IMG/VR virus record: IMGVR_UViG_3300021400_000080
Coordinates: 1 to 64,000 of that record
DNA from: a virus
Lineage: Duplodnaviria > Caudoviricetes
Reading direction: 5' to 3' (one strand)
Length of the DNA stretch: 64,000 nt
The translations under genes and the position numbers were made by a program. Shown one piece after another: positions 39,206-62,143 of the stretch. Numbering within the stretch: position 1 is the stretch's first letter; every line of letters starts with the position of its first letter. The notes under the pieces are model-generated. The model made no database searches. It worked only from the letters and a program-made list of their open reading frames with translations, and had not been told where the DNA came from.

Positions 39206-39218
39206 AGGAGGCATGAAA

Positions 39219-39434
39219 ATGAACACCGAAGATTTCACCAGCAAGGTTGTCACCGTTGTCATCGCGGTCATCGTGATTGCTGTCGTGGCCATCCCCGTCA
39301 TCAATCAGGCGGCCGAGGAAAGCGGAGCCGACAACACCACCAAGACCATCCTGGGAGTCATTCCCATCTTCCTCATCCTGGCCGTCCTCATGACCGTGGT
39401 CTACATGTTCATGAACGGCAAGAAGGACAACTGA
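39219..39434 (+). CDS. Second spindle-virus-type capsid protein paralog
   Basis: Near-identical helices to 38963-39205; two 26-bp identical DNA blocks. Confidence 0.7.
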   Translation: MNTEDFTSKVVTVVIAVIVIAVVAIPVINQAAEESGADNTTKTILGVIPIFLILAVLMTVVYMFMNGKKDN

Positions 39435-42127: not shown

Positions 42128-42390
42128 TGTCACCGCAGGAGTTCATCGACATGCTTGCCCAGGCCTTCTTCCAGGGCAATACGCAGATCGCGGGCATAGT
42201 CGTGTTCACCGCTGTCCTCGCCATCATATACCTCCTGTTCGCGCAGAGGAATATCACCGTAGGTCTTATCCTTACCCTCCCTACGACCCTCGTGTTCTCG
42301 CTGATGGGTATTCTGCCGGAGGTCCTGACCATCCTCGTGGTGATCGTAACCATCCTCGCCCTCGTCCATAAGTTCAAGGAGATGTCGTGA
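42124..42390 (+). CDS. Small multi-TM virion membrane protein
   Basis: 88 aa, hydrophobic, ATGA-coupled. Confidence 0.75.
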   Translation: MMSPQEFIDMLAQAFFQGNTQIAGIVVFTAVLAIIYLLFAQRNITVGLILTLPTTLVFSLMGILPEVLTILVVIVTILALVHKFKEMS

Positions 42391-45748: not shown

Positions 45749-46021
45749 ATGAAAGTGGATCCCGTAGCGATATTGGCCGTCGCCCTCTTCCTCGCGGGGA
45801 TGGCTGGCATAGCGATAGCGCACGCAGAAACCTACGACAACCCTCAAGACGAACCTAACCCCGTTGAACCGGAGATCGTGTCGCAGACGGAGGGATAGAC
45901 CCTCTACCGCCTTGACCTTCAGGGCGGTCCTCTCTACTACTACGAATGTGACACCGAGGACGGCACGATCACCAAGATAGTGGCGATAAAGACCGTCACG
46001 ATGGATATAGAAGTCGCGTAA
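45749..46021 (+). CDS. Small secreted/TM protein with in-frame TAG at codon 50 (45896-45898)
   Basis: MKVDPVAILAVALFLAG...QTEG*TLYRLDLQGGPLYYYECDTEDG...EVA-TAA; the TAA overlaps the AAACCTCTT end motif. Confidence 0.7.
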
Positions 46022-46121
46022 AACCTCTTAAAAATCCCCCTTCCTCAATATATCTATAATAAATGTTGCAGATAAGTTCAACATGGCATTGAACACGGCT
46101 TGTTCGTTGAATGAGCAAGGC

Positions 46122-49100
46122 ATGAGCATAAAATGGGTCGGTATCCTGATTTTAGGTATGGCCGCCCTATTTGGATGTATCGTAGCATTTGAATCGGATG
46201 ATGCGGATGCAGCTACCGCCAACCCCAATTATAGGGATGGGGATTGGGGTTATGATCTCGTTACGGAAAACGGTCTTACTACCGCCAAGATCGTATCATA
46301 CTCCGGAACAGGCGGGGGTGCGATAACCATCCCCACTACAATCGGAGGATATACCGTAACCCAGGTCGGTAAAAATGCAGACTACGGTAACAACAATGTT
46401 TTTGAACCGACATTGGTCGCAACCGATCTCATAATCCCCGATGGGATTTTGAAAATCAATAAGTTCGCATGTCAGAATCTTTCCAATTTCACGGGTACGT
46501 TAAGTCTCGGTAACACAGTAACTACGCTTGGGCTTAGTTGTTTTAGTAATGGTGGTTTTACAGGAACTCTGACACTGCCAAGAAGTATTACCACAATTAT
46601 TTATTCAACAGGTAATTACGCAGCATTTTACAATTGTGCCGGTTTCACGGAATTAGTTATCGAGAACGGTATGTCGGGGGACATCGGACATGATATGTTC
46701 CGTAATTGTACGGGATTCACGGGTGCATTGGTGATACCGGATAGTGTAACTTATATCGGAATGAGGGCATTTCAGGGTTGTTCCGGATTCACATCCTTGT
46801 CGATAGGATCCAACGTGACTACGATATATGATAGCGCATTTTACAATTGTACCGGATTCAAGGGCAGTCTCACGATTCCCGACAGTGTTACGACATTCGG
46901 AGGATATTATTCGAGTACCAACCAGGGTATATTCCAGAATTGCAGAGGATTCGACGGAGTATTGAAAATCGGTAATGGAATCACTAAAATTCCAGCAGCA
47001 TGTTTCATGAATTGCAGCGGATTCACCGAATTGATCTTAGGAAATTCCTTGACCGAGATTCAGGATTATTCGGATTATGGTGTATTTAAAGGTTGTACGG
47101 GATTGACGGGTAATCTTACGCTACCGAATACGCTTACCAAGATAGGTAACAGTGCGTTCGATGGATGCAGCGGCCTTACTGGAGCATTAGTGATACCCAA
47201 CAATGTAACATACATCGGATCAGTGGCTTTCAGGAATTGCAGCGGTTTCACTTCATTGACATTGAGTAACAGTCTTACCGAAATCAAGTCAAGTACGTTC
47301 AGCGGATGCACATCCATGACGGGTGATCTGATCATCCCTGACAGTGTGACAACCATATACTACCCATTCAGTTCTTCTTCTTCTACGAGCAGTCCTTTTT
47401 ACAATTGCGGTTTCGGAGGATCGTTGATTATAGGCGATGGACTTACAGCGGTTGGACAATACATGTTCGACGGATGCGTGTTCAACGATAATCTGGTTAT
47501 CGGAGATTCGATTACGGACATCCCATCTGGTGCATTTGCATGTTGTAAGACTGCGACAGGTACGCTTACCATCGGAAGCGGGGTTCAATCAATCGGAAAC
47601 AGCGTATTCTATCAGTATAAATTCACAGGGTCTCTCGTATTACCCAACGGTCTGAAAACCATCAGGGATCAGGCATTTGCTCAATGCACCGGATTCACGG
47701 GATCTCTTGTAATCCCGTCCACCGTGACAACGATCGGAGTCCATAGTTCATCCACATCAAATTCATCCGGAGCATTTAGAGGATGTACCGGATTCACGGG
47801 TGCATTGGTGATACCGGATAGCGTGACTTTACTCGGAGATAGGACATTCCAGGGATGCACGGGACTTACCGGAACATTGACGATAGGTACGGGGGTCACG
47901 GACATCAATCCGTATTGTTTCTATGGTTGTAAATTCACGGGTAATCTGAATATTCCCGGGAACGTGGTTAAGATTCTTGATTATGCGTTCGGCAACAATA
48001 CCGGATTCACATCCCTTACATTACAGGAAGGTCTCGATCTGATTTGGACCCGTGCATTTTCGGAGTGTACCGGGATGACGGGAGTGTTGGCAATACCTGA
48101 TTCCGTGACCACGTTGGGTCCGAAGTCGTATGCGAATGGTTGTTTCTACAATTGTTCCGGATTCACCGGACTGAACCTTGGAGACGGAGTGGAAATCATC
48201 GGGGATACCTGTTTCTGGAATTGTACCGCTATGGCAGGAAGTCTGATCATCCCGGATAGTGTGGAATATATCGGAAAGTGTGCATTTTATGAATGTGCCT
48301 TCGATGGTACTCTTACTATCGGGAATAATGTATCGGAGATAGGATACGGAGCATTTTACAGTTATAATCACGGATCGTTCATAGGCGATCTGGTAATCCC
48401 TGATAGTGTGACTGTGTTCGGGAATCCCAACAGTCAGGGTTATAATCAAGAGCCGATTTTCTGGTATGCGGGATTCACGGGTTCGCTGACTATCGGGAAC
48501 GGGATAACCGTCATTCCCCAAGGCACGTTCTATGGATGCGGATTCACAGGTACGCTTACCATCGGGAATAACGTGACACAGATAGGATCATACGATGGAA
48601 ATACAGGTGCTTTTGAGAATGTACCGTTCACAGGCGCATTGGTCATCCCGGATAGTGTGACTAAGATCATGGGACGTTCATTCAAGGGATGCAGCGGATT
48701 CACGACATTATCCCTCGGTTCGGGATTGACACAGATCACGGGATATGATACATTTAGGGATTGCACCGGATTCACGGGTGCATTGGTGATACCCGATACC
48801 GTCCAGTATCTCGGACCCAAAAATACATCAGGTACTACCTTTACAGGAGGTCGTGCGTTCATGGGATGTACGGGATTCACATTCCTTACCATCGGTAAGA
48901 ATGTGGAACTCATCGGACCCGGAACGTTCAGTGGATGTACGGGATTCAGAGGGGACCTGGTGATTCCCGACAGTGTTGTAGAGATCGCGTATGGATCATA
49001 TTATCATCCGGATACAACCACTCCCTTCTATAATTGCGGATTCGACGGTTCGCTCATCATCGGAGACGGGTTGTCAGCTGTTTATGACTATATGTTCAAC

Positions 49101-50087
49101 GGCTGTGCGTTCCAGAACGACCTTGTAATCGGAGATTCCATCGTAGGTATTCCCATAGGTACTTTTGACAGTTGCAGGAATTGTACGGGTACTCTGACCC
49201 TGGGAAACGGTCTGAAATCAATAGAGAGACAAGCGTTCAGCGGTTATAAATTCACAGGGGAATTGATACTTCCCGAAGGAATGACTGAATTGAAATACGG
49301 TGCTTTTGAGAATTGCAAGGGATTCACGGGACCTCTTGTCATTCCGGATAGCATGATAACCTTGGGTAATAACAATTCATCGAATAATGATGGGGTATTC
49401 GCAGGTTGTTCCGGATTCACATCCCTTGTCCTCGGCAGCTCGCTTGAGATGATAGGCCGCAGTACTTTTGCATCATGCACCGGTATGACAGGCGATCTGA
49501 TAATCCCGGATAGCGTGACTGTGATCGGATACAATGCGTTCAACGGTTGTTCATTCACATCATTGGATATAGGCAGCGGATTAACGTCCATTCCCGGACA
49601 GGCATTTTACGGAAATAAATTCGCAGGAACACTGGTGATCCCGGATAATATACAGACGATAGCAAGCCACGCATTTTATTTCAATAATAATTCAAGAGTG
49701 GATACATTGGTGTTGGGTAGGGGACTCACATCCATCGGAACTTACTCATTCGATACAGCGTATGCAGCACAATCCAGACTGGATAATATCGTGGCATTAT
49801 CCGACCCCACTATCGGCACGGGTGCGTTCAGAGGATCAACAGTATCCCAAATCCTGAATCTGACTGGTTCGGATCTGACCAATGTCGTACCTGGAAACGG
49901 AGACATCCCCTCGACAGCTACGATCCGCACAGCTTTCGAGGATACGGCTATGCTCCAACACACTACCGAGACCATCGTGGTAGATAAAGAAGGGATGGAA
50001 TACAGTATCATGCGGGTGATCCCGATTATAATGGCATTGGCAATACTGATCGGGGTTGCATATTACATCAGGGGGAATAAGATATGA
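46122..50087 (+). CDS. BspA-type (LRR_5) leucine-rich repeat adhesin ending in a capsid-like helix
   Basis: Dozens of LxIPDSVTxIGxxAFxxCxGFTG repeats; signal ...SDDADA; C-terminus SIMRVIPIIMALAILIGVAY. Confidence 0.9.
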   Translation: MSIKWVGILILGMAALFGCIVAFESDDADAATANPNYRDGDWGYDLVTENGLTTAKIVSYSGTGGGAITIPTTIGGYTVTQVGKNADYGNNNVFEPTLVATDLIIPDGILKINKFACQNLSNFTGTLSLGNTVTTLGLSCFSNGGFTGTLTLPRSITTIIYSTGNYAAFYNCAGFTELVIENGMSGDIGHDMFRNCTGFTGALVIPDSVTYIGMRAFQGCSGFTSLSIGSNVTTIYDSAFYNCTGFKGSLTIPDSVTTFGGYYSSTNQGIFQNCRGFDGVLKIGNGITKIPAACFMNCSGFTELILGNSLTEIQDYSDYGVFKGCTGLTGNLTLPNTLTKIGNSAFDGCSGLTGALVIPNNVTYIGSVAFRNCSGFTSLTLSNSLTEIKSSTFSGCTSMTGDLIIPDSVTTIYYPFSSSSSTSSPFYNCGFGGSLIIGDGLTAVGQYMFDGCVFNDNLVIGDSITDIPSGAFACCKTATGTLTIGSGVQSIGNSVFYQYKFTGSLVLPNGLKTIRDQAFAQCTGFTGSLVIPSTVTTIGVHSSSTSNSSGAFRGCTGFTGALVIPDSVTLLGDRTFQGCTGLTGTLTIGTGVTDINPYCFYGCKFTGNLNIPGNVVKILDYAFGNNTGFTSLTLQEGLDLIWTRAFSECTGMTGVLAIPDSVTTLGPKSYANGCFYNCSGFTGLNLGDGVEIIGDTCFWNCTAMAGSLIIPDSVEYIGKCAFYECAFDGTLTIGNNVSEIGYGAFYSYNHGSFIGDLVIPDSVTVFGNPNSQGYNQEPIFWYAGFTGSLTIGNGITVIPQGTFYGCGFTGTLTIGNNVTQIGSYDGNTGAFENVPFTGALVIPDSVTKIMGRSFKGCSGFTTLSLGSGLTQITGYDTFRDCTGFTGALVIPDTVQYLGPKNTSGTTFTGGRAFMGCTGFTFLTIGKNVELIGPGTFSGCTGFRGDLVIPDSVVEIAYGSYYHPDTTTPFYNCGFDGSLIIGDGLSAVYDYMFNGCAFQNDLVIGDSIVGIPIGTFDSCRNCTGTLTLGNGLKSIERQAFSGYKFTGELILPEGMTELKYGAFENCKGFTGPLVIPDSMITLGNNNSSNNDGVFAGCSGFTSLVLGSSLEMIGRSTFASCTGMTGDLIIPDSVTVIGYNAFNGCSFTSLDIGSGLTSIPGQAFYGNKFAGTLVIPDNIQTIASHAFYFNNNSRVDTLVLGRGLTSIGTYSFDTAYAAQSRLDNIVALSDPTIGTGAFRGSTVSQILNLTGSDLTNVVPGNGDIPSTATIRTAFEDTAMLQHTTETIVVDKEGMEYSIMRVIPIIMALAILIGVAYYIRGNKI

Positions 50088-50785
50088 GCCAAGAGGAACT
50101 GTCCAATAACATAGCCGGTATCGCGGTGTGCGTGGTCGTGTTCGCGGTCATAGCCATACCGATCTTCTACGGACTTACCACCGAACCGTATACCAATGTG
50201 AATGAAGATGCGATAGGTGAATTACGTCTCGGATACCAGGAACAGGTTTTCAGGGAGGAGATCATAGAAGCCGAGACGGAGGAAGAAGAGGACGAAGTGA
50301 TATTGGTCGATATTACTGCCTATGTTGCAAAATCGTATCTCTTCACGATCAACGGAGATACTATATCGGTATCGGGTGATTGGACGGGCGAATTATCCTT
50401 GTCCGACAATCAGATCATCATCGGCTCCGACAATTACCAATTGACCATCCAGTACGGAAAACTGATCGAGTCTGTCGATGGATATGGTGTGGAAGTGTTT
50501 TCACCCCTCCAAGTGTCCATCCACGACGGTTCCGTGAAGGATGTTCCGTACACGTTCCTCTATTATCCGGATGCGAAAGGCCCGTATGCCAATTACCAAT
50601 CCTATCGGTATGACATCACCGACCACTATTCTGTCGGAACATTCGCAGGGGTAACGGTTTCCGCGATCAATGACGAGGTAAAGGGCGATAACCAATACGG
50701 TTTCGGAGCCGAGACACAGACCGAAGATGGTACAACGACCGGAGTGGTATATTCGCCAAGAACGGAAGAACAGACCGAATCGTAA
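50084..50785 (+). CDS. Membrane protein beginning with capsid-like helix 1
   Basis: IAGIAVCVVVFAVIAIPIF; no second TM. Confidence 0.75.
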   Translation: MSQEELSNNIAGIAVCVVVFAVIAIPIFYGLTTEPYTNVNEDAIGELRLGYQEQVFREEIIEAETEEEEDEVILVDITAYVAKSYLFTINGDTISVSGDWTGELSLSDNQIIIGSDNYQLTIQYGKLIESVDGYGVEVFSPLQVSIHDGSVKDVPYTFLYYPDAKGPYANYQSYRYDITDHYSVGTFAGVTVSAINDEVKGDNQYGFGAETQTEDGTTTGVVYSPRTEEQTES

Positions 50786-50871
50786 ACCTCTTACCCCCCT
50801 ACGGGGGATTTATATTCTATCACCATAATTTCCGTTCCATAGGGTATTTATAACCTTACGAGGCCGAGAAT

Positions 50872-52830
50872 ATGGCAGAAGAAAAGAGCATAACGAGTAT
50901 GGCGATCACCGTGGTCATCGCGTTGGTCGTGACATGCACCGTACTCTTCCCGGTCATCAACAGTGTTAATGATGGCGGGAACGGGGGAGGCAGCGGAGGT
51001 GGAAGTGCAGTAGGGTCCGCAGCCGGTCCGCTGACCTACACCAACGAGGGGGACTACTACTACCAGGATTATGATAAGGCAACGGCAGATGCTATGGCGA
51101 TCAGTATGTCCTTGTCCAGTGGCAGCGATGTCGGAATGAGCATCAATGTAGGGGGAGATGTGATCAACACCCCCACATATCCTGCAACCTGGACATCAGC
51201 AGTAGGAGACCCCAACGAATGTCAGATTATTCTGCCTCTCTTATACATCGAGCAAATTCCTGGGAATTTTAGCGGAATTTTGATGTATCTCAACGGGCAT
51301 TATGAACTGCCTGGTCCTGCATATACATTCGACATATGTTTCCTTGCAACTGGGACATCCGGCGGGAATCCGATGGCGATTTCGATGGGTATGCCACTCA
51401 CTAACGAGATGCTTGCAGGGGTTACATCGGTAAACACACTTTTGGGATTGTTGCCATTCTTCCCTCCAGGTACAACGATAAGTTACGATACCATTCGCCT
51501 ACTGGCTTCTGAAGGAGATTATGTTTCAGCCAAGAATCCTGTGGTCGGGAACGAAAGCGATGCGTGGCTGTTCAATGCAACGTATGATTATTCCTGGGAT
51601 GAAAGTGAGATTTACGGCATATACAAGTATTATGTATGGTGGATTGATGGTGTGGAGACTCATACCGAGATTTCATACAATGGTGGATCCGGATACAGCC
51701 AGTATGGGAACGATCCTACAATAGTCGTGAACAGATCTACAATCAACGATTTGTCAAGAGTGGATAGCTTCACGGTCCAGTATGTCGGAACTTCCTCTGA
51801 TCGTCACGCGTATCTCGATTATTCCGATGTTTATGCGATTATACCTAAGACCGTAGAATACACGCTTGCATCGGGCGATAATTCAGATAATGTGACCGCA
51901 CATGCGACATATTATGAGACTGCACCTAATCTGAATATCGCAGTGTCCTATACCACGGAAACACGCGAGGCCGCTGTTTGGGGTGAAACTAATACTGTGA
52001 CTTCAGTTGATACTCTTACATTATCCTATGACGGACATTCAATCACAGTCGATAACCGCGCTAATCTTAATGAGTATTTCACCAGGATGGCGAGTGCAAC
52101 GACCAATGATGAGTGGACCGAGATAGATAATTGGATGTATTCGGTTAATTCTGTTCCTATCTTATTCAATCCACCTATCAATAATGAGACAAGTTCGTTG
52201 AGTGATAGGATAGTCACGATTTGGCTACCTTATGCAGTGCCACAAGGGGAGTTTGAAAATGTTTCTTCCGACATACCCACCTCAATATCCATTACCCCTA
52301 CGCAGGTCACTGTAACATCGCCTAACGACTCGCGGGATTATCCCATAGATGGCCCGTGCTATATTATCAGTGACACGGGGGATTACGGAGTATTCACCCA
52401 AAACAATCTGTCCGAGGGAGTTTATGTGGGTTCCGATATTCTGACCGATTTCAACGGCCCTATTACCGGACAAGATTCGGTTTTGAGATTCGTTCAGATA
52501 TTCAATATGAATTTCAGTACGAGTATGTATGAGACTTCCTCACGTCTCCAGGACACCTATGCCTTGACCATCGAGGACGGTATGCTCAAGGACATAGGAT
52601 GGGAGGGAGGATACAGGCAGACGGGCAACAATCCCATGGCCGAATACGGACACATCTCCGCGCAGTATGTCATTCTGCCCTTATCCGCAGACAACGGTTC
52701 GGGAGGCGGTTCCTCCGGCAACGGAAACCTCGGAGTAGCCGGAACGATCCTCGCGGTCGTACCAATCTTCGTGGTCCTGGGCATCCTAATGTATGCCGTC
52801 CAGTATTTCCGCGATCCCCGGAAGCTTTGA
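50872..52830 (+). CDS. Capsid-like hairpin with a ~570 aa inserted passenger domain
   Basis: Helix 1 + GGNGGGSGGGS linker + passenger + GSGGGSSGNG linker + helix 2 (TILAVVPIFVVLGILM). Confidence 0.8.
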   Translation: MAEEKSITSMAITVVIALVVTCTVLFPVINSVNDGGNGGGSGGGSAVGSAAGPLTYTNEGDYYYQDYDKATADAMAISMSLSSGSDVGMSINVGGDVINTPTYPATWTSAVGDPNECQIILPLLYIEQIPGNFSGILMYLNGHYELPGPAYTFDICFLATGTSGGNPMAISMGMPLTNEMLAGVTSVNTLLGLLPFFPPGTTISYDTIRLLASEGDYVSAKNPVVGNESDAWLFNATYDYSWDESEIYGIYKYYVWWIDGVETHTEISYNGGSGYSQYGNDPTIVVNRSTINDLSRVDSFTVQYVGTSSDRHAYLDYSDVYAIIPKTVEYTLASGDNSDNVTAHATYYETAPNLNIAVSYTTETREAAVWGETNTVTSVDTLTLSYDGHSITVDNRANLNEYFTRMASATTNDEWTEIDNWMYSVNSVPILFNPPINNETSSLSDRIVTIWLPYAVPQGEFENVSSDIPTSISITPTQVTVTSPNDSRDYPIDGPCYIISDTGDYGVFTQNNLSEGVYVGSDILTDFNGPITGQDSVLRFVQIFNMNFSTSMYETSSRLQDTYALTIEDGMLKDIGWEGGYRQTGNNPMAEYGHISAQYVILPLSADNGSGGGSSGNGNLGVAGTILAVVPIFVVLGILMYAVQYFRDPRKL

Positions 52831-52895
52831 AACCTCTTACCCCCTATGGGGGTTCATGGGATAATCTAATATCCGACAACCCTGTTTTTCACATT

Positions 52896-53156
52896 ATGAG
52901 ATATATCCTGTCATATTCGGATAAAGCTGCGGAACAGATAGACGGCACGGCAACCTTCGACGATCTGGACAAGGCGAGGAAGAGGGCATGCTCCCTGCTC
53001 CGCGCGGAATCGCTGGTGCGCGTGCATCTGTTCCGCAACGGACGTTATATGGGGTGGGTATCGCACAACACGGCCTACAACTGGTTCCCCCATCACGACG
53101 GTCAGAAGGAGTGGGAAGTCTATCAACTCGACCCCGCAACGGGCAAGGTCGTGTAA
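52896..53156 (+). CDS. Small basic protein (paralog family)
   Basis: FDDLDKARKRAC. Confidence 0.65.
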   Translation: MRYILSYSDKAAEQIDGTATFDDLDKARKRACSLLRAESLVRVHLFRNGRYMGWVSHNTAYNWFPHHDGQKEWEVYQLDPATGKVV

Positions 53157-53189
53157 GACGTTTTTATACCGCAATTGGGATATGAGTCT

Positions 53190-53705
53190 ATGGACATGCA
53201 GAAGAGCATCAACCCCATCATACTGGCATTTATCGGTATGGTCATAGTGGGTATGCTCCTGATCCCGTTCCTGCTGGATGTCACCCATGAGCCGGACATC
53301 AACCAGGGCAGTACGGTCAGTTACCAACCCCGTACCAACCTCGATGCCGACTTCACCTATTCGGGTACGCTGCTCGAACATTCGCAGTACACTATCGACC
53401 CGGAGACGGACGGGATAACGATCACATTCACCGAAGAGGGAACATTCACCCTTATAGTGACCGCGACATCCCATAACCCCTATCAGACCGCCACACAGAC
53501 GATAGAATACGAAGTAGGGGAATACGGGGAATACCACGATTACAAACCGCTGCTGCTCCTCGTTCCCACTATGTTCCTCGTAGCGTTCATGATGCTGGTC
53601 CTCGGACGTAAATCAGGCGGTGACGGGTTCGGGGATGACTCCGGGTTCGGAGGGGGATCGGACATCGCCGGGAAGTTCGGCAGAGGCGGATTCGGGAAAC
53701 GCTGA
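53190..53705 (+). CDS. Capsid-like hairpin with a single Ig-like insert and Gly/Phe-rich tail
   Basis: Helix 1 (LLIPF), Ig domain like that in 44161-45744, helix 2 (LLLLVPTMFLV). Confidence 0.7.
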   Translation: MDMQKSINPIILAFIGMVIVGMLLIPFLLDVTHEPDINQGSTVSYQPRTNLDADFTYSGTLLEHSQYTIDPETDGITITFTEEGTFTLIVTATSHNPYQTATQTIEYEVGEYGEYHDYKPLLLLVPTMFLVAFMMLVLGRKSGGDGFGDDSGFGGGSDIAGKFGRGGFGKR

Positions 53706-53773
53706 TACCGTTCATCTTATATATGGTCGGGAACGATTAATCTGCATAGAACCTACAAGGTTTGGTGATTAAT

Positions 53774-54109
53774 ATGGCAGAGACCAAATATGCGGTTGTC
53801 AAGGGATTGAGTTGTAACGATCCCTCTAAATTGAAGAAGATGACCTTGACTGAGGCGCGTATAGAAGCGTGCAGACTGGCGAAAAAGCATCTTAATTCTC
53901 ACACGAGGATCGGTATTTTCGCAGAGGACAAATATCACATCTCCGGCGGCAGATATATGCCGAAATGTATTGAGGATGTGCGTTATGTTGATGATGGGAT
54001 AGGCCGTAAGGGGTTCTATCTGCTTCAGTGGGAAAAGAACAGGAATTATAGGGTATCCCCTACATCCGGACGTTTGATGGATTACAGCCGCGAGTGGAAG
54101 TACATTTGA
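53774..54109 (+). CDS. Small basic protein (paralog family)
   Basis: MTLTEARIEAC. Confidence 0.7.
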   Translation: MAETKYAVVKGLSCNDPSKLKKMTLTEARIEACRLAKKHLNSHTRIGIFAEDKYHISGGRYMPKCIEDVRYVDDGIGRKGFYLLQWEKNRNYRVSPTSGRLMDYSREWKYI

Positions 54110-54119
54110 GGCGAAAGAT

Positions 54120-54461
54120 ATGGCGAAACGCGGCTCCGATCTGCTCCCCCACAATGCGCCCGGTTATGTCTGGAAACTCGGTTCGAGGTTCGGCACGGGG
54201 AAGAAGATGACCTACGGTCAGTACCTCAAGACGGGCAGCGGATTCAGTTGGGGAGGTCAGGACGGTCCGCAGATAACGAGGGATCGTAAGGTCTACAACT
54301 ACTCCGATGAGTTCATAACCAAGACCTATCGTGGCGAGGAATATGTGTTCTACTCCGTCCAGGTGTATGTGGATGGTTCCCGCAGATACATCCTACCCGG
54401 AACAAGGACGGGAAGAGGATACAAGGACTGGAAGAAGGACGGCATCGTGAGGTTCTATTAA
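54120..54461 (+). CDS. Hypothetical G/Y/K-rich protein
   Basis: 113 aa. Confidence 0.7.
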   Translation: MAKRGSDLLPHNAPGYVWKLGSRFGTGKKMTYGQYLKTGSGFSWGGQDGPQITRDRKVYNYSDEFITKTYRGEEYVFYSVQVYVDGSRRYILPGTRTGRGYKDWKKDGIVRFY

Positions 54462-54470
54462 GGTGAAGAT

Positions 54471-54836
54471 ATGGTGTATAGCATCGAGACATATTCAATG
54501 GGGGATAGGAAGTTCATCGTACTTAGAGACGATATAAAGACCATCAAGACCGCAAGGATTTTAGCATGCAGATATGCTAAAGAATACAGTAAGGTTGCAA
54601 TCTACCCCGCACGCAAAAGCGATCTTCAAAAATTCGGACAAAAAGTTTTCACGGAAGGAGCATTTGCGAAAGAGGAAATCTATTATAACAGGTCGAAAGC
54701 GTGTTATATCTCTGAAAAAAAGGAAGAGATCCTCGATGGAAAAAAGGGTTACAGTCCCATTGTCAATAAGTATTACAAGGTCAATGGAAGAACAGGGGAG
54801 ATCACACTTATTGAAGAATATCGCAAAAAATGGTAA
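54471..54836 (+). CDS. Small basic protein (paralog family)
   Basis: IKTIKTARILAC; ends YKVNGRTGEI. Confidence 0.7.
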   Translation: MVYSIETYSMGDRKFIVLRDDIKTIKTARILACRYAKEYSKVAIYPARKSDLQKFGQKVFTEGAFAKEEIYYNRSKACYISEKKEEILDGKKGYSPIVNKYYKVNGRTGEITLIEEYRKKW

Positions 54837-54853
54837 ACTATCGAGGTGATGAT

Positions 54854-55207
54854 ATGGCATATTACGTCCGTAATGCTAAATGGTGGAACAGGGAGAGCAA
54901 AAGCGAATACACATCCTACTCTACGCTTTCGGAGGCGAGGGTTGCAGCGGCCCGTCTCCTATCCCACGAATACTATGACGGAGAGAGTGTTCCGATCTAC
55001 ATCAAGAAAAGCAACAGATATTCCATCTATGCTTTCGTCCGTGAGGTCATTGGATCTTACGAGGGAGAGGATGAGGACATTCCTGTGGGTTCATCCAAAT
55101 TCGTATATCGTACCGCTTCCGGAACGGAATGTCTCATGTCCAAATCGGGTGAGTTGGGCAAGACCAGATGGAGATCGTGGTTCAAACTCGAATATCCGAG
55201 ACACTGA
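54854..55207 (+). CDS. Small basic protein (paralog family)
   Basis: YSTLSEARVAAARLL. Confidence 0.7.
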   Translation: MAYYVRNAKWWNRESKSEYTSYSTLSEARVAAARLLSHEYYDGESVPIYIKKSNRYSIYAFVREVIGSYEGEDEDIPVGSSKFVYRTASGTECLMSKSGELGKTRWRSWFKLEYPRH

Positions 55208-55220
55208 AAGGCGAAACAAG

Positions 55221-55556
55221 ATGGCTGGATGTGAGGACGTTTTGGAGAAGATCGTTAAGCCGGGGTATTTGGAGATTCCGTCCCTGGATGCCTACGTTGA
55301 GGTCACGGGCGATGATGATTTCGATGATGAATATCTTAGCGTGACCCTTGGCGGGTGGATCTCGTTCCTATTCACAAGGGACGGTTCCAGATGTATCGAG
55401 ATATGGGACATCCATACCGGGGAGGAAACGATCTTCGAGGAGGATGAGGTCGGGGATGCCATAAAGGAATGGTATTCGGCCGCATACGAGAAGAGGGTAT
55501 TGCCGACTCTCCGTGAGTTCTTGAAGGGGGAAAAGAATGAAGATACCCAACAGTGA
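55221..55556 (+). CDS. Acidic hypothetical protein
   Basis: 111 aa. Confidence 0.65.
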   Translation: MAGCEDVLEKIVKPGYLEIPSLDAYVEVTGDDDFDDEYLSVTLGGWISFLFTRDGSRCIEIWDIHTGEETIFEEDEVGDAIKEWYSAAYEKRVLPTLREFLKGEKNEDTQQ

Positions 55557-55845
55557 AGCGCGTTTGATGATCGGGAAAAGGGTACTCTACGAGGTCTGCC
55601 GTACCGTGCAGGCAGAGGTAAGGCACGAAGGGGATAATGTCAAGGCATATCATTACTTCTACTCCGATCGGGATTCCGCTATCGCCAAGTATGATGAGCT
55701 GTGCTGCAAATATCCGTATCCGAAGTCCAGACATATCACGTTGAAGAGATGGAATACATCAGGGATGCTCGTTACCGACATCTATACGAACAGATTTCTT
55801 CATAACGACGGCAAGACGTACCGTGATGTTTCGAAACTGAAATGA
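55537..55845 (+). CDS. Hypothetical protein
   Basis: 102 aa. Confidence 0.6.
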   Translation: MKIPNSEARLMIGKRVLYEVCRTVQAEVRHEGDNVKAYHYFYSDRDSAIAKYDELCCKYPYPKSRHITLKRWNTSGMLVTDIYTNRFLHNDGKTYRDVSKLK

Positions 55846-55893
55846 TCGTTTTAAACCCCTTCTTTTTTTATATGATGATTCGGATTATTTATT

Positions 55894-56250
55894 ATGTCCA
55901 AAACATCGAAAGTCCACGGACCTTATTATCTGGAGTACAAGGGATGGAGTGGCGGTTACAAACCCGTCAGGGATGCCAAGACACCCGGATATGCGACACA
56001 GTACAAGACCATCACCGAGGCGAGGAAGAAGGCGGTCCTCTTCATCAAGCACAACTCCTGCCAGTTGGTCGGGATTCAGGGAGAGGTCGGCAAGAGGACA
56101 TACGGCCGCGATGGGAGGCCCATCGTCCAGGGCGGCACCGCCGGTATCGTGGAGAGGGAGTACGACGGATACACGTTCATCTACCGCGACTACAATTCCG
56201 GCAATACCTACCGTATCAACAAGGACGGATCGGTCAAGAAGATGGAGTGA
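55894..56250 (+). CDS. Small basic protein (paralog family)
   Basis: YKTITEARKKA; ends YRINKDGSV. Confidence 0.75.
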   Translation: MSKTSKVHGPYYLEYKGWSGGYKPVRDAKTPGYATQYKTITEARKKAVLFIKHNSCQLVGIQGEVGKRTYGRDGRPIVQGGTAGIVEREYDGYTFIYRDYNSGNTYRINKDGSVKKME

Positions 56251-56255
56251 GAGAT

Positions 56256-56972
56256 ATGGGAAGATTCACAGTCAAGATCGGCGGCGAGGAAAAGGTATTC
56301 AAGGATGCCGACAACCTCCGCAGATACGTTATGCGTTACGGAGACAAGACCAAGAGATATACCTATCAGGGAGAGGGCGGTCAGTTCATTGACGGCTATG
56401 GGGTCATGTATTACACGCAGAAGGACGGTTGGAAAGTCAAACTCAAGACCGGAAGCATATATCAGATTGACAGAAGGTCTGGAGAGATTTTCGAGGGTGG
56501 CAGATACACAGTCAGGATGGCAGGAAAGGGTGAGTCAAATCCTCGCATCTTCTCTACTGATGATTTCTCCGATGCGATCAACAAGGCAATCACTCAGTAT
56601 GCCCGGAACCGTGGAAGAAAAGTCTATATCTACGATAAGGACAAGAAACTCGGACGTATCGGAGAGAGAAGCGGATACGCAACGTGGATAGACCACAAGA
56701 CCAAGAGAACGACATCGTTCAAGGATGATGATTACGAAGTGCCGAGGAAACCCGCCGGACTTACCCCCAAGCAGCCCGGTTGGATCATCGCCGGCAGGAG
56801 AGCCGGAAGCAAGGGCGCGTTCAAATACTTCTCCGGAGAGTCATTCGCGGCCAAGAAGTATGCGATGGTATGGCCTTACAACAAGTACGAACAGGCAGAG
56901 AAAACCATCGAGGAGCTGCGCTGGTACGGTGAGTATGAACATTACGAGTTCAAGATCGTAAGAGAGTCTTGA
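56256..56972 (+). CDS. Basic protein with three tandem family-like domains
   Basis: FKDADNLRRY, FSDAINKAITQY, YEQAEKTIEEL. Confidence 0.7.
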   Translation: MGRFTVKIGGEEKVFKDADNLRRYVMRYGDKTKRYTYQGEGGQFIDGYGVMYYTQKDGWKVKLKTGSIYQIDRRSGEIFEGGRYTVRMAGKGESNPRIFSTDDFSDAINKAITQYARNRGRKVYIYDKDKKLGRIGERSGYATWIDHKTKRTTSFKDDDYEVPRKPAGLTPKQPGWIIAGRRAGSKGAFKYFSGESFAAKKYAMVWPYNKYEQAEKTIEELRWYGEYEHYEFKIVRES

Positions 56973-56992
56973 TTTCGGAAAGGTGTCCAAAT

Positions 56993-57349
56993 ATGGCAGA
57001 ATATCAGTTCAGACTGGAACAGTGGGTTCTACATTCTGTTAAGAACAGTCGTGGATACTACGATTACACATCGGAATACACCCCCATCGGTAAGATGTCC
57101 AAGAAGTATAAGTCTCTTCAAGAGTGCCGTGCCGCTGCCCGGAAGTATCTTATCGACAATAAGATCTCGTCAGGCACATCAAGTCCGAGGAAAGTGGCCG
57201 TCATCTATCTCAATGGGAAAAAGAGTACCGGGTACGATCTGGTATGTTATGGTGGTATGGTCTTGCTTTTCGGAGCATCGGGCGAGACGGTCGTTTCCGA
57301 GAACGGCAACACGTTCAAATTGAGGACATTCGGTGGAATGTATCACTGA
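56993..57349 (+). CDS. Small basic protein (paralog family)
   Basis: YKSLQECRAAARKYL. Confidence 0.7.
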   Translation: MAEYQFRLEQWVLHSVKNSRGYYDYTSEYTPIGKMSKKYKSLQECRAAARKYLIDNKISSGTSSPRKVAVIYLNGKKSTGYDLVCYGGMVLLFGASGETVVSENGNTFKLRTFGGMYH

Positions 57350-57398
57350 TTGGGAATTGATGGGATTTCCTTAAATACCCAATGTCCGATTCTATCTA

Positions 57399-57460
57399 TG
57401 CCGTCCTTGAAGGATGGGTCAGGGACGGCAATCCGATAGTAGCGATCGTGTCACTTTTCC
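57399..57460 (+). ncRNA. Putative small structured RNA 1
   Basis: TTAAATA box at 57371; 12-bp stem 57399-57410/57419-57430 (one G-U); T-tract at about 57455. Confidence 0.4.
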
Positions 57461-57520
57461 TATGCACCTCTCCCATCCGCTTATCACACTTTTATATACC
57501 CCGACACGGATTCATAATAC

Positions 57521-57650
57521 GGAGGATAGCCGCGGTCCGTCTCCTCCTAACGCAGTCCGAACATCAGACGGCCGCGCGACGAGGGTTCCTTGTAGCCACG
57601 ATGCCGGGTCCCGAAGTCGGTCATTTCGCCCGGCATCAACACTTTTCTTT
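57521..57650 (+). ncRNA. Putative small structured RNA 2
   Basis: TTTATATA at about 57491; GGAGGA/TCCTCC, CGCGGTCCGTCT/AGACGGCCGCG and GATGCCGGG/CCCGGCATC stems; T-tract. Confidence 0.45.
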
Positions 57651-57677
57651 TTATATAGCCATTCTAATTTATGAACT

Positions 57678-58031
57678 ATGCCGCCATCGTCGATTCGCAG
57701 ATTCAAACCTTCGACATTCTATTTCTACGACTATCCCCACAACGGAGATATGATATACGTCCTCAAGAGGGAACTTGTGAAATCCAGTCCGGACACTTGG
57801 CGCATCACATTCGTGGATACGGACAATTATTTTGACGAAGAAGATGGAATGATGCGTATCACAAGCGCAACCGTAAGTCTGGCAGATTATGGGTATTACA
57901 TTACCGAAGTGTTGAACAGCCATAGGGTTTCTGCAACCAGAAGTATGTCCAATAAGGACAGTTACTACAAACCTTTCAAAAAGCACGTTCAGTCTTTTTT
58001 AAAGCGTTCTAAAGCGAAAGGCAAGTATTAA
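57678..58031 (+). CDS. Hypothetical basic protein
   Basis: 117 aa, own TATA and terminator. Confidence 0.7.
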   Translation: MPPSSIRRFKPSTFYFYDYPHNGDMIYVLKRELVKSSPDTWRITFVDTDNYFDEEDGMMRITSATVSLADYGYYITEVLNSHRVSATRSMSNKDSYYKPFKKHVQSFLKRSKAKGKY

Positions 58032-58084
58032 TCTGATAAACAACCCCCCATCTATGATGGGGGGAAAGGGGATAATACATACTA

Positions 58085-58720
58085 TCAATCGTTCTTGAGG
58101 ATCACATACAAGAACACGTTTTGCGCGGTCCTTCCGCTGCCGTCATCGTAGTGTGCAGTAATGGATATGTCCACAACTCCGTCAGCGGAATAATACCAGC
58201 CGTCATGATCCACGACATCCTTGAAGTTGGATCTGTTCCACTGTTCCGTGCCGTCGATGTAGTGGCAGAGATACCTGTTGAATCCGCTTAGCTGCGTGTT
58301 CGCACCATAGGAATGGGAACTGGACTGACCGTTGATGATCACATTGTCAATATCCACATAGGTCACTATACGGTAGTCCTCCCCGTTGTATATCCTTATC
58401 ACGAACGGGGTGTTCTCCGGGATGCTCAATGCGACATTCACATTCCCGTCGGAGTCTGCGATACCTCCGTTGGCATTGTCCTTACTGGATATGGTTATCA
58501 TGTCGTATTCGACCCCTTTATAGGTTGTGGAACCGCCCTCCGTGTTATAATCGGGGGTAGAAGGGTCAATCGTTATGGGGATGTTCGAGGATATGTACGT
58601 CACGGAGATCGTGTTGCCGTCTATCGTGGTGACGGACGTAATAGGAAGTGCGGAGACGATTGTGACGGGAACGAGCAGCAAGGCGGTCAGAAGAACACAT
58701 GCGACGATTCCTTTTCTCAT
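58085..58720 (-). CDS. Secreted beta-rich protein
   Basis: Signal peptide; T..T..NT. motif shared with the neighbour. Confidence 0.7.
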   Translation of the reverse strand: MRKGIVACVLLTALLLVPVTIVSALPITSVTTIDGNTISVTYISSNIPITIDPSTPDYNTEGGSTTYKGVEYDMITISSKDNANGGIADSDGNVNVALSIPENTPFVIRIYNGEDYRIVTYVDIDNVIINGQSSSHSYGANTQLSGFNRYLCHYIDGTEQWNRSNFKDVVDHDGWYYSADGVVDISITAHYDDGSGRTAQNVFLYVILKND

Positions 58721-58771
58721 TCCTTCGTCCTCCGAGATAGAATAGATGGGGTCCGAGGACCCCTAAAGGGT

Positions 58772-59407
58772 TTAAGGTTCGGGGATCTCCGCAACGAATG
58801 TGAAGATACTGCCGGGGTTCTGTGCATCCTGGTAGTTGGTGAATCCGAGGGTAGCACCGGGGTTGGTGTCGATGGACTGCGCCTGTGCGTTGGTATACGC
58901 AACGTAGAGTTCAACATCGTATTCCGTGGAGAGGGCAAGACTCGTGAAGAGCCATCCCGACTGGCCGCGGTCGTTGTGTGCCTGGTATGTGGCAACTTCG
59001 CTGCCGACGGTCATGATGTAGTCCAGTCCGGTAACGGGGGTGAACAGGGTGCAGGTGACGAACAGGTCGAAAGAGGACCCGACATCGCCCGTGGGGGTGA
59101 CGGTGAAGGATATGGCATCCGTGTTGGAGATCTTCGCACATGCCTTTCCGTCCACGGTATTGTCCGTGTTCAGTTTGTATGTGATGGTCTGCGTGTTCCC
59201 GGCGGGTCCATTGACAACGGTGTCGAATTTCGCGCTGCCCAGGAAGTCGGACGTGTCGGTCGCAGAGATGACGATGTACTCGTTGTCGAGAGTGTTGTCC
59301 GTGACATCCGTCTGCGACTTGATGAGATATGCGGCAGTGACCGATCCGGCAGTGAACAGAATCACGAACAGGACAACGGCCACGATAGCGGTTGTTTTCT
59401 TGATCAT
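58772..59407 (-). CDS. Secreted protein with TasA/SipW-substrate-like N-terminus
   Basis: ...GSVTAAYLIKSQTDVTDNTL. Confidence 0.65.
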   Translation of the reverse strand: MIKKTTAIVAVVLFVILFTAGSVTAAYLIKSQTDVTDNTLDNEYIVISATDTSDFLGSAKFDTVVNGPAGNTQTITYKLNTDNTVDGKACAKISNTDAISFTVTPTGDVGSSFDLFVTCTLFTPVTGLDYIMTVGSEVATYQAHNDRGQSGWLFTSLALSTEYDVELYVAYTNAQAQSIDTNPGATLGFTNYQDAQNPGSIFTFVAEIPEP

Positions 59408-59523
59408 AGAGATACCTCTTGTCAGCAGTCTGACATATTACAATCTGTGTGAGGGATTAAAAGCATATCCCAACAATCCCCATTTCCGCAATCCTTTTTA
59501 TTCCCTCCCTCCCATACTTATTC

Positions 59524-61383
59524 ATGGAACAGAATGTTCTTATTACGAAAATGATAGGGATAATCGTTGCCGTTATCGTGGCAGCGGTTGTCCTTGTACC
59601 GATATGCAACTCCCTGACCGAAGGGAACGGGGGTAGCGGAGGAGGAGGAGTAACAGGGATTCAGGTTGCCAATCCCAACTATGTTTCCCCCTCCGTATTC
59701 ATGACAGATGAGATAGGTTGGACGGCTATGACAAATACGGATATGGAGGCATATTTCCCCACATCCGGAGATTACATCGAAGGATATTCCAATATCGTAT
59801 CCGGGAGGAACAAGATCGCATTTGTAGATGATATTTCCATGACCGAATGTACCCTTACCTATTGGAACAGATACCTTGATTCAAGCAGTAATGGTAATCC
59901 TATATGGTATATCTCATTCCCCGGACAGGTGGAAGGATTCGGAGATGCGTCCTCTTGGAGTCTTTCGTCCGATGGTAATATCACGATAACCTACAAGGTT
60001 TCAGGAATGTCGAATTATACCACAAAAACATTCAAGGCATTGTATCTATGGTATGATGCTCCCACGGGTAATTACCACAACCTTAGTGGTATCACATACG
60101 ATCAGAATCTTGAAAAACTCGGAGGTTTCGCTGGTGTCGGTGATTACATCGGAATATCCGGACAAGTCCAGAGTCAGTATAACCCCGGAATGTTACCGTT
60201 CGTATATATGGGTCAGATTCCTGAAAGCATGAATGTATCCATATCATACACGGACTATCAGTTCGATCAAGCCACTGAAACTATCACCCCTATCCCGTCC
60301 ACGGCCAATATCGACCTGACGGCTATATCCTACTCGGTTCAGTTGGAGGATGGCAGATACTATTTCCCTACTGCGTTCGCGGTTGCTCCGACCTATACGT
60401 TCGAGGGTCACTACGAGGATCGTGTCATGACACTGGATTGGATAAAACAGAAAATGTCGGAGGACGATGGTCTATGGGGATTCGATTATTCTGATGCACC
60501 GGGATACGAGGATACTATCCTATGTTTCAACGGGTTCGGTAAGATCGGGACGATGGCGCAGTATTGGGTCTATCCTACGGACGGTCAATGGAGTGAAGGC
60601 AGAATGGAACGTGTAGCCACTACCGCAGCGGATTTCGCTATGGTTTTCGACAATGGTTATGGAACCGGATGCCTTTTGCAGATTGAACGTGAAAAAGAAG
60701 TAGGTAGTGAGACTTGGAGTTATCAGGGTCTTGAGATAACAGAGGATATTGTATTGGGTGAGGTCAATATCAGTTCTTACGACACTGCATATCTCTCGAA
60801 AGCGAATATGGGGAATGTGATGTACTATCGTGATACATTCATGAACAATCAGTTTACAGGACAGTATATCGCGCAGTTCTCGGAAAATGCTAACGGATTT
60901 TGGCTCATTCCTAATTCGGAGGTCATATCGGATGAGGATTTCGATTGGAGCAGTGTTCCTGAAGATTTCCTTATCCCCAATCCCGTATCGTGGGAAACCG
61001 CGCTTGCTAACAACCCAATAACCATAACAAATCTGGCGGTAAAGGATGCTATCTACCCCTATTATGATTTCATCCTTGATAATACAGGAAAGGCATACAT
61101 GTTTGAATCTCCTTCTTCGGAGTATGAGCGTCAGGGACCCGAATACAATGAAGTTGCAATTTGGACACCTGGAACGTCTCCGTTGAATTGTGCAATACCC
61201 ATGTCATACGATTATAGGGTACTCGCAGCCGGAGAGGGGGATTCGTCTAATGGCGGCGGTTCTTCGGGAGGTAACGACCTCGGAGTAGCCGGAACGATCA
61301 TCGGCATCATCCCCGTGTTCGTGATACTCGCCATCCTAATGGGAGCTGCCGGACTGTTCTACCAGAACCGTAAGACGATCTGA
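59524..61383 (+). CDS. Capsid-like hairpin with a ~540 aa inserted passenger domain
   Basis: KMIGIIVAVIVAAVVLVPICN + GNGGSGGGG ... NGGGSSGG + GTIIGIIPVFVILAILMG. Confidence 0.8.
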   Translation: MEQNVLITKMIGIIVAVIVAAVVLVPICNSLTEGNGGSGGGGVTGIQVANPNYVSPSVFMTDEIGWTAMTNTDMEAYFPTSGDYIEGYSNIVSGRNKIAFVDDISMTECTLTYWNRYLDSSSNGNPIWYISFPGQVEGFGDASSWSLSSDGNITITYKVSGMSNYTTKTFKALYLWYDAPTGNYHNLSGITYDQNLEKLGGFAGVGDYIGISGQVQSQYNPGMLPFVYMGQIPESMNVSISYTDYQFDQATETITPIPSTANIDLTAISYSVQLEDGRYYFPTAFAVAPTYTFEGHYEDRVMTLDWIKQKMSEDDGLWGFDYSDAPGYEDTILCFNGFGKIGTMAQYWVYPTDGQWSEGRMERVATTAADFAMVFDNGYGTGCLLQIEREKEVGSETWSYQGLEITEDIVLGEVNISSYDTAYLSKANMGNVMYYRDTFMNNQFTGQYIAQFSENANGFWLIPNSEVISDEDFDWSSVPEDFLIPNPVSWETALANNPITITNLAVKDAIYPYYDFILDNTGKAYMFESPSSEYERQGPEYNEVAIWTPGTSPLNCAIPMSYDYRVLAAGEGDSSNGGGSSGGNDLGVAGTIIGIIPVFVILAILMGAAGLFYQNRKTI

Positions 61384-61442
61384 AACCTCTTACCCCCGAA
61401 AGGGGGTTTACTTTTTTTATATATCTATCTACATTTTCAATT

Positions 61443-61754
61443 ATGGTAAAATACTACCTATGTTACATGAAAGATGACCGTCATGGGGGTAACAATCTGA
61501 AAAAGAGTACCCTCATTGAAGTCAGCAGTATCGTGGTTGCGCGTGCAAAAGCGATAAAGTACCTAAAGGACAACATGAAGAGCAATCGGGATTATGTAGA
61601 GATTCAGAAGGTTGTCCGTAACGGGGTTAAGGATGTTTGCGAGGTCTATTTCAAGAAGGGAAATTACGTTGCCTATTATTACGATAGAAACGGTGAGATC
61701 GTCAGCAAATACCTGAATGTGAAAGGATCATTGGGTAAATCATTCTCTTATTGA
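61443..61754 (+). CDS. Small basic protein (paralog family)
   Basis: SSIVVARAKAIKYL; ends YLNVKGSLG. Confidence 0.7.
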   Translation: MVKYYLCYMKDDRHGGNNLKKSTLIEVSSIVVARAKAIKYLKDNMKSNRDYVEIQKVVRNGVKDVCEVYFKKGNYVAYYYDRNGEIVSKYLNVKGSLGKSFSY

Positions 61755-61843
61755 GATTCGAGGGGGGATTCCTCCCCCCATAAACGGTTTACTTTTTTCC
61801 TTTTTCCATAATTTATATATTCTCTACCCCCGATATTTTTATC

Positions 61844-62143
61844 ATGGTATCATACTACCTTGTCAGATATAAAAACAAGAAGAGGATCGAGGACCCCCGT
61901 GAGTTCTCTACCCTTGATGCAGCACGCAAGGCCGCGATGCGTATGGGTATTCCCGAAGGGGAAAACGTATATGTGTTCCGTTTGGTTGATTCCAAGTCCG
62001 AGGATAAGAAATTCGGGATTGTGGAAAACTACGGAGACCATTGGGTATGGGTCAAGTACGTCCCCGGTAAAGGCGGCCGTCTTTCATACCCCTCATACCC
62101 GATTTACAGAAACGGCAGTATAGGTAAAGAATTCAGATATTGA
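61844..62143 (+). CDS. Small basic protein (paralog family)
   Basis: FSTLDAARKAA; ends IYRNGSIG. Confidence 0.7.
   Translation: MVSYYLVRYKNKKRIEDPREFSTLDAARKAAMRMGIPEGENVYVFRLVDSKSEDKKFGIVENYGDHWVWVKYVPGKGGRLSYPSYPIYRNGSIGKEFRY

Follow-up and report, generated by a model that had tools for sequence, protein, structure and literature searches.

The coat proteins of spindle-shaped archaeal viruses are very small hairpins: a short loop connects two hydrophobic helices, helix 1 has a proline close to its end, and helix 2 has one close to its start. Described examples are VP1 and VP3 of SSV1 and SSV19 (PF06281; 7XDI chain A) and VP21 of His1 (PF25665). In the SSV19 shell (7XDI), the VP1 loop lies outside and both termini point inward, and VP1 stacks on the hydrophobic helical bundles by which the tail proteins VP4 and B210 enter the lattice. 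Budding of SSV1 takes place through the membrane, and VP26 and VP27 of His1 are reported as minor virion proteins. The spindle is one of the commonest shapes among archaeal viruses, and how an attachment module is mounted on a shell of such tiny hairpins is known mainly from one solved fusellovirus tail. The DNA analyzed here is a stretch of 64,000 nt (the window; positions 1 to 64,000 of IMG/VR record IMGVR_UViG_3300021400_000080), taken from a virus record that is complete at 75,709 bp (~76 kb) and has direct terminal repeats. It encodes two long proteins, p652 (652 aa; 50872-52830, plus strand) and p619 (619 aa; 59524-61383, plus strand), each with helix 1 of the virus's own hairpin coat protein at its N end and helix 2 at its C end. 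As judged by sequence comparison, they belong to a large "split-hairpin" family that originated from the major, two-helix coat protein of an archaeal virus of the spindle type. The family offers a testable answer to the mounting problem, in which a shell subunit would be the anchor, split around the displayed domain.

The free hairpins of the window are like the known spindle coat proteins in having two helices, the two prolines, and a short loop, whereas the long proteins (here called chimeras) have linkers and a passenger of 160 to 890 aa instead of the 13- to 31-aa loop. The best structural precedent for anchoring such proteins in the virion is provided by VP4 and B210 of SSV19, which have large outward domains (receptor recognition is proposed for VP4) and terminal helical modules that dock onto the coat lattice. 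They differ in that the module is a C-terminal three-helix (Z-shaped) bundle at one end only and in that no linker cassette exchange has been reported; PDB profile searches with both chimera alignments returned nothing significant and no match to either protein. ORF23, VP26, and VP27 of His1 also combine an N-terminal hydrophobic segment with a C-terminal anchor and are encoded downstream of the coat gene. However, this is a likeness of architecture only: their terminal helices are unlike their own coat protein (z ≤ 1.8; no His1_capsid match), which makes them a negative control, and blastp in a four-sequence database found no significant similarity between VP26 or VP27 and p652 or p619 (E ≥ 0.12). 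The lectin proteins ConA1 and ConA2 of Thermococcales spindle viruses (PMC12934983) are likewise variable, modular, putative glycan-binding attachment proteins with transmembrane helices; they are part of the conserved core of these viruses and differ between close relatives, but no relation to the coat is stated and they vary by gain and loss of lectin domains, not by exchange of the whole passenger. Functional analogies are found in filamentous phages, where a hydrophobic coat-type anchor bears an exposed binding domain (pIII in natural display, pVIII in engineered mosaic display), and in the swapping of T-even tail fiber adhesins, where conserved flanks permit recombinational exchange of specificity. 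These systems of bacterial viruses have no homology to the chimeras and another virion architecture, and here it is the two halves of the coat fold that flank the insert. The searched literature, including that on SSV, His1, and other spindle viruses, did not describe any coat hairpin with a domain inserted in its loop; coverage was incomplete for methanogen virus, Nitrosopumilus virus, and His1 proteomics work, where a prior description is possible, and the family is apparently previously undescribed.

Coat hairpins and the ends of p652 and p619

The 64-kb window contains no terminase, portal, or HK97-type capsid gene. Instead, three tandem plus-strand genes encode products of 73 to 80 aa with two hydrophobic helices each. 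These are an A-type hairpin coat protein paralogue of 80 aa (38693-38935), a B-type hairpin coat protein of 80 aa (38963-39205), which carries TIIKVIPIFLILAVLMG and is the scaffold that the chimera arms resemble, and a C-type paralogue (39213-39434; ~71 aa when taken from 39219) that shares 73% identity with the B-type. All three have the small two-helix, short-loop build (~70 to 95 aa) that characterizes the spindle virus coat family. The A-type protein matched Pfam His1_capsid with an E value of 2.1e-5 and 24.8 bits, under the 27-bit cutoff, the B-type protein matched Pfam VP1_VP3 weakly (E = 0.014), and the alignment of the A-type with the B/C-type profile took in the entire hairpin (hhalign, 93%). 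When a profile of 54 free hairpins was searched against the PDB, the top match was SSV19 VP1 (7xdi_A; E = 1.8e-4), with both helices and both proline kinks covered, and 8 of the 54 hairpins had His1_capsid matches (best E = 2.3e-6). The matches to SSV19 VP1 and His1_capsid, taken with the whole-hairpin alignment of the A, B, and C types, point to a spindle-virus-type coat protein as the scaffold; the signal is consistent, at a significance below curated thresholds. The coat genes have GGAGG-type ribosome-binding sites. In the relative G001, a stand-alone B-type coat protein (L013, 12394-12663) has a loop 9 aa longer than that of the window, and the L015 paralogues show a further difference, so that even stand-alone coat proteins are free to vary in loop length.

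The hydrophobic helices of p652 and p619 are confined to the ends, one at each, with ~530 to 570 aa between them. In p652, arm 1 (coat helix 1, aa 1-33; 50872-50970) is followed by a Gly/Ser linker (50971-51015) that is also an exchange breakpoint (see below), a passenger of ~560 aa (51016-52680), and a second Gly/Ser linker with arm 2, which consists of coat helix 2 and a short basic tail (52681-52830). The same order is found in p619, with arm 1 (aa 1-33) at 59524-59622, linker 1 at 59623-59658, a passenger of ~530 aa at 59659-61233, and linker 2 with arm 2 and its short basic tail at 61234-61383. Both passengers are acidic, mostly beta, and without a known domain. A sequence-only reading of this DNA had already described both proteins as starting with helix 1 and ending with helix 2 of the putative major coat protein, with Gly/Ser linkers around unrelated passengers. 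Its coordinates, lengths, and quoted motifs for the two open reading frames (ORFs) and the hairpin proved exact, the linkers are present on both sides in both proteins, and the passengers are indeed unrelated by blastp, profile-profile comparison aligning arm 1 and the linker only.

Several lines of evidence connect the ends of these proteins to the coat protein. First, in Smith-Waterman alignments against the hairpin, evaluated with composition-preserving shuffles, helix 1 scored z = 7.2 in p652 and 9.1 in p619, and helix 2 scored 9.4 and 11.6, respectively, compared to z ≤ 1.8 for control transmembrane helices from three other proteins of the module (p836, p410, and p105). Second, a coat-only hidden Markov model (HMM), built from nine free hairpins of four related genomes with chimeras excluded and run on the 894 ORFs of those genomes, matched p619 at E = 2.7e-14 (profile positions 1-36 to aa 1-36 and 47-74 to aa 590-617) and p652 at E = 2.1e-8, again in two collinear pieces at the extreme termini. 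The other membrane proteins of the module were not matched. The sequence-only reading was to be abandoned if profile comparison did not connect the terminal helices with the coat; since the model matches both termini, that objection falls away. Third, a tblastn search of the window with the coat protein recovered both ends of p619. Against a library of 1.84 billion representative proteins, the database copy of p619 (P0001) is significant alone (E = 2.1e-6), and p652, at 29.9 bits, is not significant by itself at that library size. By these comparisons, p652 and p619 are derivatives of the coat hairpin family and, being too long, not ordinary members of it.

The arms are maintained as protein. 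Arm 1 of p619 and that of its relative L014_378 differ by 12 synonymous and 2 nonsynonymous codon changes over 33 codons. This means that the arms are not conserved merely as recombination handles, and the codon pattern indicates purifying selection on the arm protein sequence. The same kind of comparison bears on the start codon: codons 2 to 9 change synonymously with the amino acids kept, and one relative lacks Met10, which favors the first ATG, giving a coat-like N-tail of 9 aa, as the likely start of the chimera genes. Each chimera gene has its own TATA-like box ~25 to 30 nt before this ATG and no ribosome-binding site (50827-50871 and 59479-59523, with equivalents in L014 and L015), which suggests leaderless transcripts. 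An upstream motif, CCATACTT, is conserved among p619-type genes.

The split-hairpin family and the exchange of its passengers

The coat-only profile was searched against the 1.84-billion-protein library at E ≤ 1e-3 and gave 156 matches, 59 of them free hairpins (≤130 aa) and at least 97 of them chimeras of 235 to 973 aa, with helix 1 at the N end and helix 2 at the C end in all 97. A single coat protein used as the query had found no longer proteins, a result superseded by this exhaustive profile search. When the 97 chimeras are aligned, the sole invariant columns are the two prolines. Their passengers fall into 38 clusters (median, 289 aa; range, 160 to 890 aa) and are strongly acidic, with a net charge of about -11 per 100 aa; an internal hydrophobic or transmembrane segment is present in 2 of 97, and a Pfam domain, BspA-type LRR_5 (a leucine-rich repeat [LRR] domain), also in 2 of 97. 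N-glycosylation sequons are not enriched in the passengers (387 observed versus 348 expected). All members stem from metagenomes. No match to the coat protein or to the 410-aa protein was found in the GenBank phage and archaeal virus collection, and a scan of GTDB genomes with an alignment of the 410-aa protein found none. A separate observation is P0083, a metagenomic protein of 940 aa in which the middle part of the coat profile matches partially seven times, at regular intervals of ~129 aa; it is possibly a repeat protein or else a false positive.

The passengers of p652 and p619 have no match in Pfam, PHROG, or NCBIfam. AlphaFold2 models made with few homologues had a mean predicted local distance difference test score of 31 for p619 and 36.8 for p652 and are usable for secondary structure only; the best Z score of the p652 model against 48,161 PDB chains was only 4.4, which is uninformative, and an ESM Atlas lookup with the p619 passenger gave no usable match. 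Taken together, the family comprises ~40 unrelated, uncharacterized ectodomain types, probably ligands for methanogen or gut surfaces, which makes it relevant to the host range of gut methanogen viruses. The combination of conserved arms, flexible linkers, and inserts of 160 to 890 aa may also serve as a natural blueprint for display on archaeal virus particles, and a coat-only profile matching both extreme termini of a protein is a search signature that could reveal attachment proteins in other spindle virus genomes.

The sequence-only reading had suggested checking related contigs for conserved helices with swapped passengers, and these were found. A homology search with p619 recovered two full-length relatives and thirteen proteins of 352 to 425 aa that aligned at both ends only, with 76 to 97% identity over 5 to 8% of the query; these have near-identical arms, Gly/Ser linkers, and different passengers. 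Among 24 members compared, there were 13 passenger clusters, and 60 of the 68 pairs in which both arms were at least 80% identical had no detectable passenger similarity. The converse was also seen, with passengers 85 to 95% identical between arms of just 43 to 48% identity. A good example of this is P0019, in which a p652-type passenger lies within p619-type arms (81% identity over the whole protein and 85% over the passenger alone). In P0015, a p619-type arm 1 is joined to a p652-type arm 2. The p619 passenger is homologous, at 27 to 29% identity, to the passengers of P0002, P0003, and L014_632.

The DNA shows where the exchange takes place. Between p652 and its L014 counterparts, nucleotide identity switches sharply at nt ~100 to 120 and ~1820 to 1850, that is, within the linkers; for example, identity between p652 and L014_657 rises from ~50% to ~90% at nt 100 to 120. 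Arm 1 of p652 and L014_632 is 85 to 93% identical at the nucleotide level although the passengers are unrelated, and arm 2 of p619 and L014_378 is 93 to 98% identical, again with unrelated passengers. The GC content of the passengers (0.45 to 0.47) is lower than that of the arms (0.50 to 0.59), with values of 0.47 and 0.55 to 0.59, respectively, in p652. These comparisons provide solid evidence, at the level of sequence, that the arms evolve independently of the passengers, the two being exchanged through recombination inside the linkers. Along the genome, whose GC content is ~0.51, it falls to ~0.45 over the LRR passenger (46001-48000) and the p619 passenger (60001-62000), which fits imported cassettes.

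Proposed display on the virion and competing explanations

We consider it probable, at roughly 0.6, that the chimeras are incorporated in the virion as coat-type hairpins with the passenger outside. A chimera would insert into the host membrane with both termini inside, like the coat protein, leaving the passenger outside. Its two arms would pair as a coat-type hairpin while the virion assembles or buds and would occupy a coat subunit position either within the helical shell strands or where these begin. As a minor, mosaic component of the particle, the passenger would thereby be tethered to its outer surface. Passengers would most likely serve in attachment to the host or another surface, and exchange of cassettes would alter specificity while leaving the shell contacts undisturbed. 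The chimeras retain the short inward-facing tails and both kink prolines of the coat protein, the linkers take the place of the coat loop, and two members carry BspA-type LRR adhesin repeats. The topology argument of the sequence-only reading also held up: the loop of SSV19 VP1 forms the outer surface with the termini inward, and the free-hairpin profile aligns to VP1 over both helices. The broader proposal that spindle viruses have a natural mosaic capsid display, in which coat paralogues with loop domains copolymerize into the shell and swap cassettes at Gly/Ser joints, is more tentative and to our mind falls a little short of an even chance. If true, mosaic display would explain how attachment diversifies in spindle viruses without recognizable fibers.

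Several points weigh against placing the chimeras in the virion. First, the comparison of tail lengths in chimera and coat (N-tail, 9 versus 9 aa; C-tail, 6 versus 4 aa) is partly circular, as matches were classed by terminal matching. Second, the best-scoring coat protein was that of the same genome for 7 of 11 arms, and one coat group topped nearly all, which confounds the comparison; the arms do not clearly track the coat of their own genome, and therefore the signal of coevolution with a lattice partner is not seen. Third, a passenger of up to ~60 kDa on a subunit with a tiny footprint could be sterically hard to accommodate unless the chimeras are sparse or polar. Fourth, signal peptidase could remove helix 1. 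Finally, the host, which is probably a pyrrolysine-using gut methanogen, is assigned by metagenomic binning alone.

As to where in the virion the chimeras would sit, a polar, pIII- or VP4-like location is as possible as a pVIII-like one over the body. Strict confinement to one pole appears rather unlikely; the chimeras would then be spikes of the tail, not scattered like pVIII, and their hairpins would start off or close the strands of coat protein, as do SSV19 VP4 and B210 with their helical bundles and phage pIII. It would fit the SSV19 structure, in which each of the seven strands begins on a hydrophobic helical bundle of the tail proteins, and the attachment of spindle viruses via the tail; there are just 2 to 4 chimera genes per genome, each with its own promoter, and bulky passengers are easier to fit at a pole. 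However, the arms are full coat-type hairpins with no distinct adaptor fold, so that the sequence imposes no polar restriction, there is no sequence similarity to VP4 or B210, and a fixed tail structure would more readily be sought in the conserved membrane proteins of 836, 105, and 410 aa.

A different explanation is that the chimeras are two-anchor membrane proteins absent from virions and located on the surface of the infected or lysogenic cell, where they would act in adhesion, lysogenic conversion, or superinfection exclusion; the likeness of their anchors to the coat would then reflect common descent and shared membrane insertion. This we regard as unlikely, although coat protein and chimeras alike must first enter the host membrane, BspA-type LRR passengers are typical of surface adhesins of gut microbes, the relative G001 is classed as a provirus, and the arms were not seen to covary with the coat of their genome. 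Related methanogens also have host-type proteins anchored at the N and C termini. Yet the chimeras keep coat-specific features beyond the needs of an anchor, namely, kink prolines invariant in 97 proteins and short tails, their arms are under purifying selection, their genes are always in the structural module, and the His1 proteins of the same topology are virion components. Furthermore, this type of anchor is missing from the host lineage: in 60 relatives of the candidate host metagenome-assembled genome (MAG), the coat profile gave two marginal one-helix matches only, and the better one, an ordinary surface protein of the transglutaminase-like kind, has no proline motifs.

Helix 1 might instead be a cleavable signal peptide, so that the mature protein would be a type I spike held by helix 2 alone, like the spikes of pleolipoviruses or His1 VP26 and VP27 as annotated, and no hairpin would form. 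His1 ORF26 and ORF27 are annotated with a signal sequence and a C-terminal anchor, and SSV1 VP1 itself is N-terminally processed. Moreover, the 1334-aa LRR protein of the window (46083-50087, plus strand) combines an unrelated, signal-peptide-like N end with arm 2 alone, which means that arm 2 can work without arm 1. Nevertheless, this explanation seems quite improbable for the chimeras. Their helix 1 is a hydrophobic stretch of ~20 residues behind an acidic or neutral N-tail, with no Ala-x-Ala-type site; it is as conserved as helix 2 and under the purifying selection described above, its alignment to coat helix 1 is collinear from the first residue on, and its proline is invariant in the 97 proteins. 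A 233-aa protein of the window (50084-50785, plus strand) has arm 1 as its only hydrophobic segment.

Two further candidates were rejected. An archaeosortase sorting signal (PGF-CTERM and the like) is contradicted by the lack of any NCBIfam CTERM match at E ≤ 10 in p652, p619, three other chimeras, and the coat proteins, and the P-[IV]-F motif sits inside the helix and occurs in the free coat protein too, where there is nothing to be sorted. A kinship with archaeal type IV pilins was suggested by a weak match between helix 1 of the coat profile and a pilin (8pfb_G; E = 0.009), but the helix is not preceded by a Gly/Ala cleavage motif, and all 97 chimeras have a second, C-terminal helix.

Neighboring genes and the probable host

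The coat hairpins are followed by a morphogenetic block of 836-, 105-, and 410-aa membrane proteins (39617-43619, plus strand), recognized by synteny. The order of hairpins, then proteins of ~800, 89, and 406 aa, and then directly the chimeras is kept in eight genomes of 27 to 76 kb (the window, G001, L014, L015, L017, L018, L019/L020, and C372).

The 1334-aa protein upstream of p652 is a BspA-type LRR protein (Pfam LRR_5, E = 1e-166) in which positions 36-68 of the coat profile match aa 1296-1328 (E = 4.9e-5; helix 2 z = 11.1). Its stop codon overlaps the start of the 233-aa gene (ATGA), whose product has the coat helix-1-like arm at its N terminus only (profile positions 1-36 to aa 1-36; E = 2.8e-6; z = 11.9). 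The region 46083-50785 thus presents a hairpin divided between two genes, with helix 2 on the LRR protein and helix 1 on the overlapping next gene. In the L017 relative P0135 (973 aa), an intact hairpin surrounds an LRR_5 passenger. No LRR_5 repeats were found in p652 or p619 with Pfam.

Downstream of p652, a 171-aa protein (53190-53705, plus strand) has a beta domain of ~90 aa between two hydrophobic helices and a Gly/Phe-rich tail of ~32 aa after helix 2. It had been read from the sequence as a single Ig domain in a capsid hairpin. Only part of this description stands: helix 1 resembles A-type coat helix 1 (hhalign, 87.6%; E = 3.5e-6) and a small beta domain is present, but helix 2 was matched neither by the coat profile nor in profile-profile comparison, and the PKD/Ig-like matches of the middle domain are weak (E = 0.023). 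The protein is 99%, 89%, and 38% identical in three relatives and is thus a conserved core gene, not a variable cassette. Between this gene and p619 lie two adjacent 211-aa paralogues on the minus strand (58085-58720 and 58772-59407), each with a single N-terminal hydrophobic segment. There are also many paralogous ORFs of ~95 to 130 aa on the plus strand, dispersed over the genome (27254-28315, 53762-57349, and 61443-62143), several of them between the two chimeras.

The sequencing runs listed as carrying the window DNA belong to a single study of animal gut metagenomes, with no RNA run among them. A related viral contig of 24 kb and two short, nearly identical contigs were binned with a methanogen MAG having PylD and McrA. 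This MAG (CALAVG01, here G002; contigs C109, C233, C372, C276, and C253), with its three binned virus-group contigs, is labeled Methanomicrobiales, yet it has PylD (187 bits) and McrA; either the bin mixes organisms or the label lacks resolution. The presence of PylD agrees with the TAG read-through noted in the sequence-only reading. Finally, a 273-aa transglutaminase-like virus protein (31062-31883) has a Cys-core motif in common with a 525-aa two-anchor surface protein of the related methanogen G033 (L029, 1507-3084).

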